A stretch of 9,242 nt of DNA from IMG/VR virus record IMGVR_UViG_2529293240_000018; one strand, 5' to 3'. Made by a program: the position numbers and the translations under genes. The stretch is from a virus (Duplodnaviria; Heunggongvirae; Uroviricota; Caudoviricetes). Shown here piece after piece: positions 2,032 to 9,164 of this stretch (its first letter is position 1; every line of letters starts with the position of its first letter). Below the pieces are notes generated by a model. That model made no database searches. It worked only from the letters and a program-made list of their open reading frames with translations, and was not told the DNA's origin.

Positions 2032-2916
2032 TCAGGGGGCCAGTCTAGCAACAGTGAACGTTGTGTTGCCATTCATATCAATACCCGGCGGAGCCTTACG
2101 CCAGATGGCCGCCGCGATATCTGCCGGGCTGCCGCCGTACACGCCAACATAAAGCGAACCGGGTGTTAATGGATACTGACTGACTCCGGCTTTTTGTTCT
2201 GTTTTTTTCGGATTATGGGTGACGTAAACATCCACCACGTTTTCCACCGTGGAGAGTATTTCACCCCGGATGGCTTCCAGAATATTCCGGGCATTACGGG
2301 CAACTGAATTACGTCGGCGGTTTTCAAAGTCCGCACGGGTTTCCTCATCGCTGCCCGGCACACCGGCACTGGCGTTAGTGACACCTGACCAGCCAGGTAT
2401 TGCCTTATAAATTTTATTCAGCGTCCCCACAGGACAGCCGACGGGGCCGGTGGACAAATTCAGAAATACCGCATCAACCTGCCCTGATGCGCCGATAGTG
2501 ACGTCTGACTGACTGACATACTTATAACCGGCCTCATCCTGCGCCATACTGCCCGCCGGGATCAGCGTGCCAACCAGCCCGGTACAGGTCGCTGTTACTG
2601 TCGTACCTGTGGCCCCGCGGCGCTCCAGGAAATAAATCCTGCCTATTGCATCCTGAAAGCGACCACTGGAAAAGTCAGGGTTGATCTGGTTAACGATATA
2701 CAGCAACTGATCGTTTTTATCCGCAATAATGGCGCTTTCGCTGGATGCAAGTTGTCCCTGCGGACTGCTCAGACTGGTACTCATGGCCCCGCCCAGCGCC
2801 GCCGAAAAATCAGCAAGCCTGCCGCTCAGAATATCCGCTTCATCCGGCACATTCAGCCCGCTATCCGAAATCTGTACAGCGGGCACTGCGGTAGAAAAAG
2901 ATTTATTTTCACTCAT
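2032..2916 (-). pseudogene. Phage baseplate J-like protein (Mu gp47 / P2 gpJ-like), C-terminally truncated at the IS2 junction
   Basis: 294-aa ORF; the last 4 codons (RLAP) and the stop come from the IS2 terminus (2032..2047). Position downstream of gpV-like and gp46-like genes, with a 4-bp start/stop overlap with the upstream gene. Internal segment ETRADFENRRRNSVARNARNILEAIRGEILSTVENVVDVYVTHNP loosely resembles the gpJ core. Family call is by synteny and weak similarity. Confidence 0.5.
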
Positions 2917-3269
2917 AGCAGTACCGTAAAAATGTCATTATTGGTATCTGTAATACGCAGCACACCTGTTACTGTCCGGGTTTGATCAGCTGTGACCAGG
3001 CAGACAGCGGCGCTCACGGTCGGCAGTTTAAGTGCTTCCTGTTGCAGAGTGGCATTCACCAGTTGTGTGCCGGGCCAGTGTCCGAGGATGCGTGGCCAGT
3101 AAGGTATGCCAGCCGTTGAGTCGTACCAGCACTCCCCCAGAAAAGTACTGCACGCACACGCCACATCCTGAGCTACCGCATGGGGATTATCAGTAATGGC
3201 AAGATTTCCGGTATCATCAAGCAGGATATCCCATGTCCCGGTGTCAAGAAGAAGTGATCGTGACTGCAT
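2913..3269 (-). CDS. Phage baseplate protein, Mu gp46-like by position and size (118 aa)
   Basis: Intact ORF between the gpV-like and J-like genes in the canonical hub-V-gp46-gp47 order; no diagnostic motif recognised. Confidence 0.4.
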   Translation of the reverse strand: MQSRSLLLDTGTWDILLDDTGNLAITDNPHAVAQDVACACSTFLGECWYDSTAGIPYWPRILGHWPGTQLVNATLQQEALKLPTVSAAVCLVTADQTRTVTGVLRITDTNNDIFTVLL

Positions 3270-3281
3270 GTTTTCTCCTGT

Positions 3282-3939
3282 TTACCGGGGTCCCTGCGTG
3301 GTTGAGCCGCCGGACTCAACGCCGCCGTGAACGTGGTTTCCAAAATCAATACCCCCGATGTTCGAACCGCCGGAAAGCCTGGACTGCCCGGTAACGTCAA
3401 GCCCCTTACTGACGGCGGTATCGCCGTTCAGCGCAATTTGTGGTGAATTAACGGTGAAGCTTTTCGGCGCATTAATCACACCCTCAGGCGCGGATATCTC
3501 CACTTTCCAGGGAGATACAATCCGTATCTGGTTGTCATCAAATACCACAAACTGGACGGGATCACCGTTGAGCACGCCACCCAGCCAGATGGCATCAGCA
3601 TAATTATGGGTACGCTTTGATCCCGGCATCGCAGCCTGACGCGTGGCTTTTACCGCACTGATATCCCGATCGCAGATGGCAAGAAAACCGATATCCCCCA
3701 CATGTGGCGGCATAATCACCGCATTACCGCCCCCCTGTAGTCGCCATACGGGAATGTTATAAATCACCTCATGTTCAACCGGGGAACCGTCTGCTGCAAC
3801 GCCCATTACCATCGGTCGGGCCTCAATAAATCCCTCTTCCACGGCTACCACCCGTCCCAGAGTGATAAACGCATGACGTCCGAGAAACTGCCGCAGCATA
3901 AAGTCCTGTGCATTGATTTCGCTGTTCACGTCTGTCGGG

Positions 3940-3959
<20 letters not shown>
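3282..3959 (-). CDS. Phage baseplate assembly protein V / central spike (Mu gp45 / P2 gpV-like), 225 aa
   Basis: C-terminal glycine-rich apex motif ...GGSNIGGIDFGNHVHGGVESGGSTTQGPR resembles the P2 gpV C-terminus (..HTHKHPGDSGGTTGSP..). Overlaps the upstream gene by 20 bp, typical of a phage morphogenesis operon. Confidence 0.65.
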
Positions 3960-5616
<1,657 letters not shown>

Positions 5617-5685
5617 TGGAGCACCTGTGTTGTTCTGAGGTGAGCATATCACCTCTGTTCAGGTGGCCAAATTCAGTGTGCCACT

Positions 5686-5967
5686 TCACTTTAGCTCACC
5701 GTTTTGCAGGAGAATGTCGAGCACATCCATCTGGTCGATTTCAACCAATCTACGAAGAACATAAGCGGCATCTATACCTACCTCTTCGTTTCGCTCGGCT
5801 TTAAGCTCAGCAATGCGCTTTGCGATATTAGCTTTTATTAGGTTTTTGCATCCTTGTACGGCGGCAGAATCCTCACTGTAACCCGCCCTGATGGCTGCTT
5901 GCGTGGCATTGAGATCTTTCAGGTACTCACGGGCAAACAGCTCTTGTTTGTCGGTGAGCTTTGCCAT
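5686..5967 (-). pseudogene. Phage terminase small subunit (TerS), N-terminal 93 aa, C-terminally truncated by IS911
   Basis: MAKLTDKQELFAREYLKDLNATQAAIRAGYSEDSAAVQGCKNLIKANIAKRIAELKAERNEEVGIDAAYVLRRL... has the typical small-terminase N-terminal motif (MAKLT.KQE.F..EYL.D.NATQAAIRAGYS). The stop codon is the TGA of the IS911 terminus. A GGAG Shine-Dalgarno sits about 10 nt upstream of the ATG. Confidence 0.75.
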
Positions 5968-6098
5968 TATTTGTGCTCCGTTTATCCGTTAAAAGGGATA
6001 TCAGTTAAGTTATCCCGTGTAGGGTATAAGCCATTATCAAGCCCACCAGTAGATGGACTTTGTAATGAAGAGCCGTTGTGAAAGTAGCTCTCAGGTTG

Positions 6099-6302
6099 TC
6101 ATTTTTCCCTTTTCTGCCTACCTGCCCACTGTTTTGCAATGTACAGGCAGTCATCGAAAACTCGGCCTTTTCTGCTGGCTTGTGAACAACGGCGGTAATG
6201 CTCCACCGCCATGTCAGCGCCAGTCATAGCCGCGTTCTGGTCGTACCCAAGCTTTATTAACTCGGTTGTTACATTTTTATGTATGAAATCAATCGGAGTC
6301 AT
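6099..6302 (-). CDS. Hypothetical small phage protein, 67 aa
   Basis: Open frame MTPIDFIHKNVTTELIKLGYDQNAAMTGADMAVEHYRRCSQASRKGRVFDDCLYIAKQWAGRQKREK, co-oriented with and upstream of terS. Its start codon overlaps the stop of the upstream small ORF (ATGA). No family recognised. Confidence 0.45.
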   Translation of the reverse strand: MTPIDFIHKNVTTELIKLGYDQNAAMTGADMAVEHYRRCSQASRKGRVFDDCLYIAKQWAGRQKREK

Positions 6303-6415
6303 GCTGGTTTACCATCAGGGAAATCCCCCATGTCACATAGCTTGAACTGAATCAGATCCTTCACAAGCTGCTCAGCCTTTTTAATGGCCTTCTTCTCTTT
6401 CTTCCGACGAGTCAT
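6299..6415 (-). CDS. Small lysine-rich ORF, 38 aa (below the ORF-track cutoff), possibly 5'-truncated by IS600
   Basis: ATG at 6413-6415 (minus): MTRRKKEKKAIKKAEQLVKDLIQFKLCDMGDFPDGKPA, with its TGA overlapping the ATG of the 67-aa ORF. The frame stays open upstream into the IS600 end 10 bp away, so the true N-terminus may be lost. Confidence 0.3.
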   Translation of the reverse strand: MTRRKKEKKAIKKAEQLVKDLIQFKLCDMGDFPDGKPA

Positions 6416-6489
6416 GAGAGCGCTATGAGGTAGCCTGAGTTTAACGGACACTCCTTCCTGAAATAGAATGGCATCAGAAGGAGCTAATA

Positions 6490-6792
6490 ATGAGCAGAAA
6501 AACCCAACGTTACTCTAAAGAGTTCAAAGCCGAAGCTGTCAGAACGGTTCTTGAAAATCAACTTTCGATCAGTGAAGGCGCTTCCCGATTATCCCTTCCT
6601 GAAGGCACTTTAGGACAATGGGTTACCGCCGCAAGAAAAGGGCTCGGTACTCCTGGTTCCCGCACGGTGGCTGAACTGGAATCTGAAATTCTGCAACTGC
6701 GTAAGGCGTTAAATGAAGCTCGCCTTGAGCGAGATATATTAAAAAAAGCAACAGCGTATTTTGCACAGGAGTCGCTGAAAAATACGCGTTAA
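6490..6792 (+). CDS. IS600 OrfA (HTH/leucine-zipper regulator), 100 aa
   Basis: MSRKTQRYSKEFKAEAVRTVLENQLSISEGASRLSLPEGTLGQWVTAARKG...DILKKATAYFAQESLKNTR; intact. Confidence 0.85.
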   Translation: MSRKTQRYSKEFKAEAVRTVLENQLSISEGASRLSLPEGTLGQWVTAARKGLGTPGSRTVAELESEILQLRKALNEARLERDILKKATAYFAQESLKNTR

Positions 6793-7668
6793 TCGAACAA
6801 TGGCGACAACAATTTCCCATTGAAGCGATGTGTCAGGTATTTGGTGTATCCAGGAGCGGTTATTACAACTGGGTACAGCATGAACCCTCAGACAGAAACA
6901 AAGTGATGAGCGGCTAAAACTGGAGATTAAGGTGGCACATATCCGCACTCGCGAAACATATGGAACCCGGCGGCTCCAGACGGAGCTGGCAGAGAATGGC
7001 ATCATCGTTGGTCGTGACCGACTGGCACGTCTTCGTAAGGAGCTAAGGCTACGCTGTAAGCAGAAACGCAAGTTCAGAGCGACTACGAACCCGAACCACA
7101 ATCTGCCAGTTGCGCCAAATCTGCTGAACCAGACGTTCGCTCCTACAGCACCAAATCAGGTCTGGGTGGCGGACCAAATCAGGTCTGGGTGGCGGACCTG
7201 ACGTATGTTGCCACACAGGAGGGATGGTTGTACCTCGCTGGCATCAAAGATGTTTATACGTGCGAAATTGTCGGCTACGCCATGGGAGAGCGCATGATAA
7301 AAGAGCTGACAGGTAAAGCCCTGTTTATGGCGCTCAGGAGCCAGCGCCCACCTGCCGGGCTAATCCACCACTCTGATCGAGGTTCACAGTACTGCGCATA
7401 CGATTACCGGGTCATACAGGAGCAGTCTGGTCTGAAAACATCAATGTCGCGTAAAGGTAACTGTTACGACAACGCTCCGATGGAAAGCTTCTGGGGAACG
7501 CTGAAAAATGAGAGCCTGAGCCACTATCGTTTTAATAACCGGGATGAAGCCATCTCAGTAATACGGGAATACATTGAGATTTTCTACAATCGTCAGCGTC
7601 GTCACTCTCGTCTGGGGAATATCTCCCCGGCAGCCTTCAGGGAAAAATATCATCAGATGGCTGCTTAA
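6741..7668 (+). pseudogene. IS600 OrfB transposase, disrupted by a 1-bp deletion and a 23-bp tandem duplication
   Basis: OrfB homology runs through three frames: frame 0 from the A7 slippery run at 6741-6747 (..FPIEAMCQVFGVSRSGYYNWVQHEPSDR); frame 2 from about 6896 (KQSDERLKLEIKVAHIRTRETYG...APNQVWVAD); frame 1 after the duplication (LTYVATQEGWLYLAGIKD...HSDRGSQY...[18 protein letters not shown]...). Confidence 0.8.
7151..7196 (+). repeat. Perfect 23-bp tandem duplication (2 copies of CCAAATCAGGTCTGGGTGGCGGA) inside IS600 orfB
   Basis: Read directly: 7151-7173 and 7174-7196 are identical. It duplicates the codons for PNQVWVAD and shifts the frame. Confidence 0.9.
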
Positions 7669-7691: not shown

Positions 7692-8307
7692 CTATTGCCA
7701 GTACACCTCATAACCGCGTTCGATCGGTTTAGGGGGAAGTGGTGCCTGAACGATGACATCACACCGGCTACAGGCCAGTTTGGGACGTATGGTTTCGATA
7801 ACTTTAAAGGCGGTATTAATGATATCCAGTTGCTCTGAGATTGTTTCCCCCATTTCTTTCAGAACACCTCCACAGGCCGGGCAACTGGTTTCAGCAGGCA
7901 GAAGGCGATGTGTCTCCCGGGGAAGTTCTGCCGGCAGCGGTTTTCGTGAAGATTTTCGTCCCGGGAATTCAGGCTTACTGGCGATCGGGTTTTCTGACGG
8001 GGGACTGGTGTCAGGTGAATCTGTGACTGACGATGCATCTTCCAGAAGATTTCTGGCTGTGTTCAGCCGGTTTTCCAGTTCCGACAGTCGTTTTTCTGCC
8101 TGTCGGATCTGATTTTCAAGCTTATGACGCTTTTTCTCTGAACTCTGGCCGAACAACATACGACGCAACCTGTCGAGTTGCGCTTTTCAGCCGTTCAATT
8201 TCCTGCTCATAGCCCGCGACCTGACAGGCATACTGTCGAAGCCGACTCTGTTGCTTACGCAACATGGCTTTAAGCAGCTCAATATCATCGGGGAGTTCAT
8301 TGTTCAT
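7692..8307 (-). pseudogene. IS66-family transposase TnpC, N-terminal ~205 codons only, with an internal frameshift
   Basis: The 61-aa (8122..8307) and 158-aa (7692..8168) ORFs are two frames of one gene: MNNELPDDIELLKAMLRKQQ...EQEIERLK | AQLDRLRRMLFGQSSEKKRHKLENQ...CPACGG.... Removing one base from the T4 run at 8184-8187 (plus) rejoins them. Homology ends at 7711; the last codons come from IS600. Confidence 0.75.
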
Positions 8308-8669: not shown

Positions 8670-9164
8670 CGGATACCCCCTTTCATTTCGCGGATTAGCG
8701 CCCGTAACAGTTCCGGAGTGAGAGGGTCAAACAGTTTTACCACACCTGATTTTAAGATGCAGCTCGCACCGTGGGACGTTTCCGGGAGCCCCCTCAGGGC
8801 GCTCATCATGCTTGTTACGCCAGAAGGGATTTGTAACTGGTCTGGTCGGCTCCGGCGTATCAGTCAGAGCCACCGGGACAGGCATGCATTCCTGTATGTC
8901 ATCATCGCTCAGTAAGCCGTCCTCGTACTGGCTTTTCCATTTAAACAGCAGGTTATTATTGATATCGTGTTCTCTGGCGATCCGGGCAACAACAGCCCCA
9001 GGCTGTAACGCCTGCTTAGCCAGACGGACCTTAAATTCACGGCTATAGCTGGTTCGCCGTTCTTTTCGCCATGAGCCTTCTCTGATTTGAGGCTCTGTTA
9101 ATTCCTTCTTTCTGTTGGCATAAAGGATGGCGTCAAGTTGAGCGAATGAAACTGAATCGGGCAA
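8667..9164 (-). pseudogene. IS66-family TnpA (orf1), with a frameshift near the C-terminus
   Basis: 145-aa ORF (8727..9164) ...RTSYSREFKVRLAKQALQPGAVVARIAREHDINNNLLFKWKSQYEDG...CELHLKI. The expected C-terminus (GVVKLFDPLTPELLRALIREMKGGIR, stop overlapping the tnpB ATG in ATGA) is in another frame; the break is near 8741-8750. Confidence 0.6.

Follow-up and report, generated by a model that had tools for sequence, protein, structure and literature searches.

The short hairpin located upstream of the small terminase gene terS in the window (the whole stretch of DNA analysed here, 9,242 nucleotides in length) belongs to a non-coding cassette of approximately 90 nt that lambdoid phages carry between their lysis and terminase genes, and the main element of this cassette is a different hairpin, designated hairpin B, which is a genuine selected RNA structure. 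Read along the late strand, the cassette consists of hairpin B (6067-6031), a 48-nt A domain (6029-5982) of which the hairpin first noticed (hairpin A) is the apical stem, the sequence CGGAG and a start codon (Table 1). The initial annotation had placed hairpin A correctly, but had overlooked the larger conserved cassette and hairpin B within it. The reading that we prefer, albeit tentatively and as something that falls short of being probable, is that hairpin A represents the tip of the second stem-loop domain in a portable two-hairpin intercistronic leader that doubles as a recombination joint, and that is vestigial in the window.

Table 1. Coordinates of the cassette and of the surrounding phage DNA in the window.
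Feature	Positions	Strand	Remarks
Lambdoid prophage remnant, full extent	5689-6425	minus	99.5% identity to the E. coli CFSAN029787 prophage
terS fragment	5689-5967	minus	First 93 of ~184 codons; IS3-family insertion at ~5688
Shine-Dalgarno sequence GGAG of terS	5976-5979	minus	8 nt before the AUG; CGGAG conserved in hkbM-type and terS-type copies
A domain, 48-nt imperfect palindrome	5982-6029	minus	Lower stem UUAU.CC / GG.AUAA closes hairpin A; four TTATCC-like half-sites
U4 tract immediately 3' of hairpin A	5991-5994	minus	Replaced in L149, L169 and L188; not a conserved part of the element
Hairpin A, GGGAUA-ACUUAACUGA-UAUCCC	5995-6016	minus	Apical stem of the A domain; 5' arm invariant in 135 copies
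Hairpin B	6031-6067	minus	Lower stem of 5-6 bp, invariant CA/GA internal loop, upper stem of 9 bp; covarying core
Hairpin C, GAGAGCU-N11-GGCUCUU	6068-6092	minus	Directly upstream of hairpin B; from the fold of the intergenic region
67-aa ORF upstream of the hairpin	6099-6302	minus	phrog_4439 match, E = 5e-34; function unknown

Hairpin B and the portable cassette

Hairpin B folds with an energy of -17.4 kcal/mol on the minus (late) strand as compared to -9.0 kcal/mol on the plus strand, a strand-specific stability that is due to several of its pairs being G.U. When ten diverse copies were aligned, 96% of the cells were paired and 10 of the 15 pairs had changed on both sides; the covariation observed was not reached in any of 500 shuffles, and slid controls were just 29-46% paired in these ten copies (25-53% over both hairpin B alignments). 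The same numbers were obtained for 56 distinct sequences gathered by means of a covariance model, in an alignment (A3) that is itself fitted to the model. At least three sequence types of hairpin B can be distinguished, which differ from one another by compensatory changes, while no variation was observed in the internal loop, 5'-CA / GA-3'. The covariance model (R1) matched the window at 6026-6073 with a score of 61 bits, and in the whole genome of Sf6 only two copies of hairpin B were detected, both of them on the late strand between Rz and gene 1. Rfam returned no gathering-score match in the window, and just chance-level microRNA matches in the interval 5850-6250 at E values up to 10. Literature on boundary sequences, late-operon stem-loops, DUF2560, RNase III in connection with late transcripts, and prophage small RNAs was consulted, and the element was found to be undescribed there. 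Hairpin B is unannotated, and the lambdoid phages in which it is confined to the lysis-to-terminase interval represent at least seven enterobacterial genera. The cryptic prophages DLP12 and Qin of strain K-12 harbour no copy of the cassette or of hairpin B, and K-12 data sets are therefore unusable for this element.

The cassette as a whole is widely distributed. The region from approximately 5975 to 6092 of the window matches more than 160 GenBank phage records at 87-99% identity, and its flanks are without match; phages that carry the cassette include HK97, HK022, HK620, Sf6, epsilon34, ES18 and Stx phages of the 1717/2851 type, and wherever the phage is annotated, the match falls in non-coding DNA of the late strand, invariably between the lysis cassette and the terminase genes. 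With respect to the neighbouring genes, 52 of 116 distinct contexts have an ORF of 45 codons or more whose stop codon lies 0-14 nt before the start of hairpin B, and where module A is present a Shine-Dalgarno sequence and a start codon are found 60-69 nt downstream of hairpin B in 43 of 79 contexts. In 32 of these 79 contexts, which are of the Stx type, no gene start follows the cassette, and this argues against a purely translational role. Hairpin C, which adjoins hairpin B in the window, also precedes it in ES18 (after rha) and in one further locus, L092. In loci L014, L034, L078, L106 and others a canonical intrinsic terminator (GCGGGGCUUUUUUAUUG) is situated immediately before hairpin B, from which it follows that the cassette comes after, and does not replace, the terminator of the upstream accessory gene.

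The sequences to either side of the cassette vary from phage to phage. Downstream of GGATAAA four continuations were recognized, these being hkbM/DUF2560, a second gene, terS (as in the window) and a non-coding sequence of the Stx type, and at least six contexts were recognized upstream of hairpin B, a stop codon closing some of them and a true intrinsic terminator others. The three types of hairpin B occur with the downstream continuations in many combinations, each type being found with terS. On either side the cassette thus has many different genes as partners, and the breakpoints coincide exactly with its structural edges, in the manner of a portable joint. Boundary ('bsq') or linker sequences of mosaic lambdoid genomes have reportedly been described for HK620 and Sf6, and such boundary sequences were foreshadowed by the modular theory of Susskind and Botstein. 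The cassette resembles them in being a short, conserved, non-coding sequence at a gene boundary, with unrelated and differing genes on its flanks and mosaic breakpoints at its edges. The record of Sf6 lists bsq2 to bsq7, none of which is at the cassette site, and no bsq feature was present in the stretch of HK620 read from lysis to terminase genes. The cassette differs from a bsq or a plain homology patch in that one of its halves, hairpin B, has been preserved through compensatory changes and is therefore a selected structure.

In HK620 (L003 1496-1848) and HK97 (L004 680-1332) gene-free gaps of 350-650 nt begin with a copy of hairpin B. The gap of HK620 ends with hairpin B and the A domain, while in HK97 hairpin B and the A domain lie inside the gap, approximately 100 nt before gp74. 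These gaps look as if gene cassettes had been lost between copies. HK97 retains the start codon of hkbM after the cassette, with no hkbM gene being annotated.

Hairpin A in the window and among related phages

The phage DNA around hairpin A is restricted to 5689-6425 and is held between two IS copies, with IS3-family genes on either side, namely an IS3-family transposase at 5600-5688 (98.9% identity) and a second IS3 orfA that begins at 6490. The CFSAN029787 prophage to which this remnant is related is apparently intact, and its terS, located downstream of the lysis genes, specifies a protein of 184 aa; the intact terS is that present in locus L141. In the window a 93-aa ORF (5686-5967), the AUG of which is at 5967, corresponds to the N-terminal half of the small terminase (phrog_51, terminase small subunit, E = 5e-36), and the gap of 131 nt that separates it from the 67-aa ORF holds the hairpin. 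Owing to the truncation of terS by an IS and to the loss of the upstream late operon, the cassette is vestigial in the window, where it is a dead relic whatever its role in a live phage. The phrog_4439 ORF is unannotated in the intact E. coli relative (L141 3780-4111), where a gap of 332 nt extends from the upstream gene to terS.

The remainder of the window is made up of IS pieces and a truncated myovirus baseplate block. IS debris, at 1-1957, 4449-5689, 6490-7668, 7692-8168 and 8727-9164, accounts for most of the window and comprises several copies or fragments of IS3-family orfA/orfB as well as one fragment of the IS66 type. The myovirus-type baseplate genes (2032-4455, minus strand) encode Baseplate_J, a spike with a GpV apex motif and a baseplate hub; this run is cut by an IS at approximately 4449 and is unrelated to the lambdoid fragment that carries the hairpin. 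The two phage fragments are islands amid IS debris, a pattern that is typical of Shigella-like genomes.

The sequence GGGATA-N10-TATCCC has a single occurrence in the window, at 5995-6016 on the plus strand, and the 6-bp stem with a 10-nt loop that had been reported from inspection is thereby confirmed; the right repeat had been identified, its span having been given as 5994-6015, one base to the left of the true one. The AAAA noted upstream of it on the plus strand is present at 5991-5994 and reads as UUUU 3' of the stem on the late strand. Also borne out was the location of the hairpin on the late-strand transcript, between the 67-aa ORF and terS and upstream of the ribosome-binding site, while the distance to the latter, put at about 25 nt, was approximate, as the GGAG begins 15 nt and the AUG 27 nt after the stem. 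A folding-energy calculation had been proposed as a check, and on the minus strand the 22-mer GGGAUAACUUAACUGAUAUCCC does fold, at -6.9 kcal/mol and with a z of -3.3, but 4.3% of all 22-nt minus-strand windows do equally well or better. Perfect 6-bp inverted repeats with loops of 3-12 nt occur at 3.7 per kb in the window, and hairpin A alone is within chance expectation and unremarkable. In the isolated 68-nt leader hairpin A forms with a probability of 86%; when the first 40 nt of terS are added, the minimum-energy fold is without hairpin A and contains other pairings instead.

What makes hairpin A non-random is its conservation. Its 22-mer lies within a conserved block of 53 nt, and is found in more than 160 GenBank phage records and in 135 copies from the fetched phage loci, the latter representing 23 distinct sequences; the 5' arm does not vary among these copies, and the 3' arm is altered in four singletons, two of which change a pair to G.U and two of which break one. 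As there was not a single case of change on both sides of a pair, the pairing of hairpin A appears to be neither supported nor refuted by covariation. Nucleotide diversity was determined for 72 loci picked by HkbM protein identity and not by leader sequence, and the 64-nt leader had a value of 0.0117, the stem one of 0.0069 and the loop one of 0.0165, as compared to 0.068 at third codon positions of hkbM, the adjacent gene. Diversity in the stem and leader is thus 6-10 times lower than at neighbouring synonymous sites, a difference which indicates that the A-domain sequence is under constraint.

Hairpin A was found to be absent from the leaders of hkbM homologues (45-74% amino-acid identity) of Citrobacter, Serratia and metagenomic origin. 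In these leaders hairpin B is retained, having undergone compensatory changes, and GGCUUAUCCC or something close to it comes next, then a short spacer and a Shine-Dalgarno sequence. The Citrobacter locus was the one useful distant match obtained from a scan of genome contigs for HkbM, the other matches being mostly identical copies. Of 75 phages whose HkbM proteins are identical, one has the same short allele as these leaders, without hairpin A; the natural allele that lacks the A domain reads GGCUUAUCCCAACAACCGGAG. Among 80 loci encoding terS homologues (66-91% identity) the cassette was present in seven (three of 46 distinct upstream contexts) and missing from 73, with one of the 80 carrying hairpin B alone; its presence at just these seven speaks against a leader dedicated to the regulation of terS. 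Conservation in related prophages, with compensatory changes, had been put forward as a further check on hairpin A, and the outcome is divided: the stem is strongly kept in phages of E. coli, Shigella, Salmonella and Klebsiella, but it has no compensatory changes and is absent from distant leaders and from most terS homologues. On the best reading of these comparisons hairpin A is probably an optional, lineage-restricted addition that is naturally dispensable, and the alleles, when compared, suggest an origin of the A domain in inverted duplications of an ancestral UUAUCCC motif.

Alternative readings of hairpin A and the A domain

It is a real possibility, albeit one that we think unlikely, that hairpin A has no function, being an inverted duplication of the leader sequence UUAUCCC that merely persists within a lambdoid block spread and homogenised by recombination. 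Such an origin would be in agreement with the natural presence or absence of the hairpin, which is polymorphic even alongside an identical HkbM protein and extends to the distant leaders that are without it, with the complete lack of compensatory changes, with the marginal stem that drops out of the minimum-energy fold once terS sequence is included, and with the combinatorial reassortment that surrounds it. The low diversity of the leader could itself reflect homogenisation by recombination rather than function. Against an absence of function, however, are the 6-10 fold reduction in diversity of stem and leader relative to neighbouring synonymous sites, the retention of the GGAUAA partner of the lower stem at constant spacing even where the U tract has been replaced, and the coincidence of the cassette boundaries with structural boundaries.

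A serious rival, even if we judge it decidedly unlikely, is that the A domain acts at the level of DNA as a putative protein-binding site, for which the 48-bp imperfect palindrome with its four TTATCC-like half-sites would provide the sequence and which a DNA-binding protein of phage or host would recognise, Rha and KilA-N proteins being among the candidates. The inverted repeat has arms of 19 nt that are 74% complementary, in agreement with the RNAalifold consensus, and its primary sequence is invariant without covariation. Moreover, the A domain folds at -9.2 kcal/mol on the late strand as compared to -14.3 kcal/mol on the plus strand, an asymmetry that is opposite to that of hairpin B and does not favour an RNA of the late strand; as it folds better on the anti-late strand, the A domain fits a DNA palindrome as well as it fits an RNA. 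Genes for Rha or KilA-N proteins are situated upstream in HK620, Stx-1717, phiKp_30, ES18 and two further loci (L206 and L137). Sf6 and the intact relative of the window, on the other hand, carry the cassette without Rha or KilA-N among their annotated neighbours, the rest of the Sf6 genome shows no excess of the motif (6 matches as compared to 5 expected), and no known operator consensus is matched; by inspection, the IHF consensus is one off in spacing and DnaA boxes agree at 6-7 of 9 positions. A dispersed operator motif of the TTATCC type, and likewise a small-RNA target complementary to the linker, were tried for the Sf6 genome and rejected, both being at chance level.

We consider it highly improbable that hairpin A and the UUUU that follows it constitute a weak intrinsic terminator or attenuator, which would limit read-through into terS by polymerase that is not antiterminated, or the 3' end of a small RNA composed of hairpin B, a single-stranded linker and hairpin A. 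The cassette does share with Rho-independent terminators and attenuators a stem-loop followed by a U run and positioned upstream of a gene; with a hairpin at either end, a U tract after the 3' one and a conserved single-stranded linker in between, the architecture is like that of a small RNA, and the cassette is 98.9% conserved in Stx-type contexts that lack a downstream gene. Of the four options that the initial annotation had weighed, namely an attenuator, an RNA processing site, a protein-binding site and nothing at all, the attenuator was nevertheless unsupported; a processing or protein-binding site stays a candidate. The stem is weak and A-U rich, with G-C at just three of its six pairs, and the loop of 10 nt is outside the form of an intrinsic terminator, which has a G+C-rich stem and a loop of 3-8 nt; the four U are followed by AAC, so that the tail (UUUUAACG) has 4 U in 8 positions where at least 5 of 8 are expected. 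The U tract has also been lost in three loci, in which AACAAG or CACAAG takes its place while the hairpin and its GGAUAA partner are retained. When the window region and HK620 were scanned for promoters and terminators, nothing was called on the late strand at the element, hairpin A being missed in either, and the true intrinsic terminators of some contexts lie directly upstream of hairpin B. In lambdoid late operons, furthermore, terminators far stronger than this one do not stop polymerase once the phage antiterminator Q has modified it. For the small RNA in particular, there was no match to an Rfam family, and the linker was without a complementary target in the genome of Sf6. Hairpin A is, on this evidence, unlikely to be a transcription terminator.

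Three further readings were tried and rejected. A mini-ORF of nine codons, AUG GCU UAU ACC CUA CAC GGG AUA ACU UAA (MAYTLHGIT, 6005-6034, minus strand), the start codon of which is in the 3' arm of hairpin B and the stop codon in the hairpin A loop, showed no coding signature: among its variants there is one frequent change that is synonymous, along with at least six that are non-synonymous and one that removes the start codon, and neither Citrobacter nor Serratia has kept the peptide. An insulating role, in which hairpin A would prevent occlusion of the Shine-Dalgarno sequence, was not supported, as the computed accessibility of the latter is no better with hairpin A (0.32) than without it (0.41-0.48). 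An attenuator-like switch of the 1-2-3-4 kind has an alternative conformer that is just 1.9 kcal/mol worse, and is otherwise unsupported.

Proposed role and significance of the cassette

In the portable two-hairpin leader that we prefer, hairpin B, which often lies directly past the stop codon of an upstream accessory gene, would cap the upstream message, while the A domain together with the Shine-Dalgarno sequence would form the leader of the downstream cistron, and the cassette would thereby act as intercistronic punctuation of lambdoid late operons. Its conserved sequence may at the same time provide the homologous joint at which modules of the late region are swapped. Intercistronic stem-loops such as the RNase III sites of phage T7 and the REP hairpins of the malE-malF operon process or stabilise polycistronic mRNA, and hairpin B is similar to these in being strand-specific, in having an internal loop and in following directly after stop codons in a long operon. 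It differs from the T7 RNase III sites in that, with approximately 15 bp and a 2x2 loop, it is shorter than classic substrates. Hairpin A is without counterpart in either of these systems, and is far too short for a T7-like RNase III site, which comprises approximately two turns of double-stranded RNA.

A more far-reaching form of this proposal, which we regard as quite unlikely, is that the cassette is a dedicated and hitherto undescribed gene-junction element, in which a nuclease or a phage protein would read the CA/GA loop and the TTATCC repeats, which would set the processing or translation of the flanking cistrons, and which would serve as the standard exchange joint for accessory genes and terminase modules.

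The hairpin as it was originally reported is of very little significance, and should not be annotated as a terminator. Of wider relevance is the occurrence of an unannotated covarying hairpin, coupled with an invariant leader, at the mosaic joints between lysis and terminase genes of many enterobacterial temperate phages, Stx phages included. Were the cassette to control processing or translation, or to guide exchange, it would offer a testable handle on how accessory genes plug into the late operon and on why mosaic breakpoints are placed where they are. Hairpin B and the invariant A domain together represent a modestly interesting lead for phage RNA biology, with hairpin B being a better lead than hairpin A.
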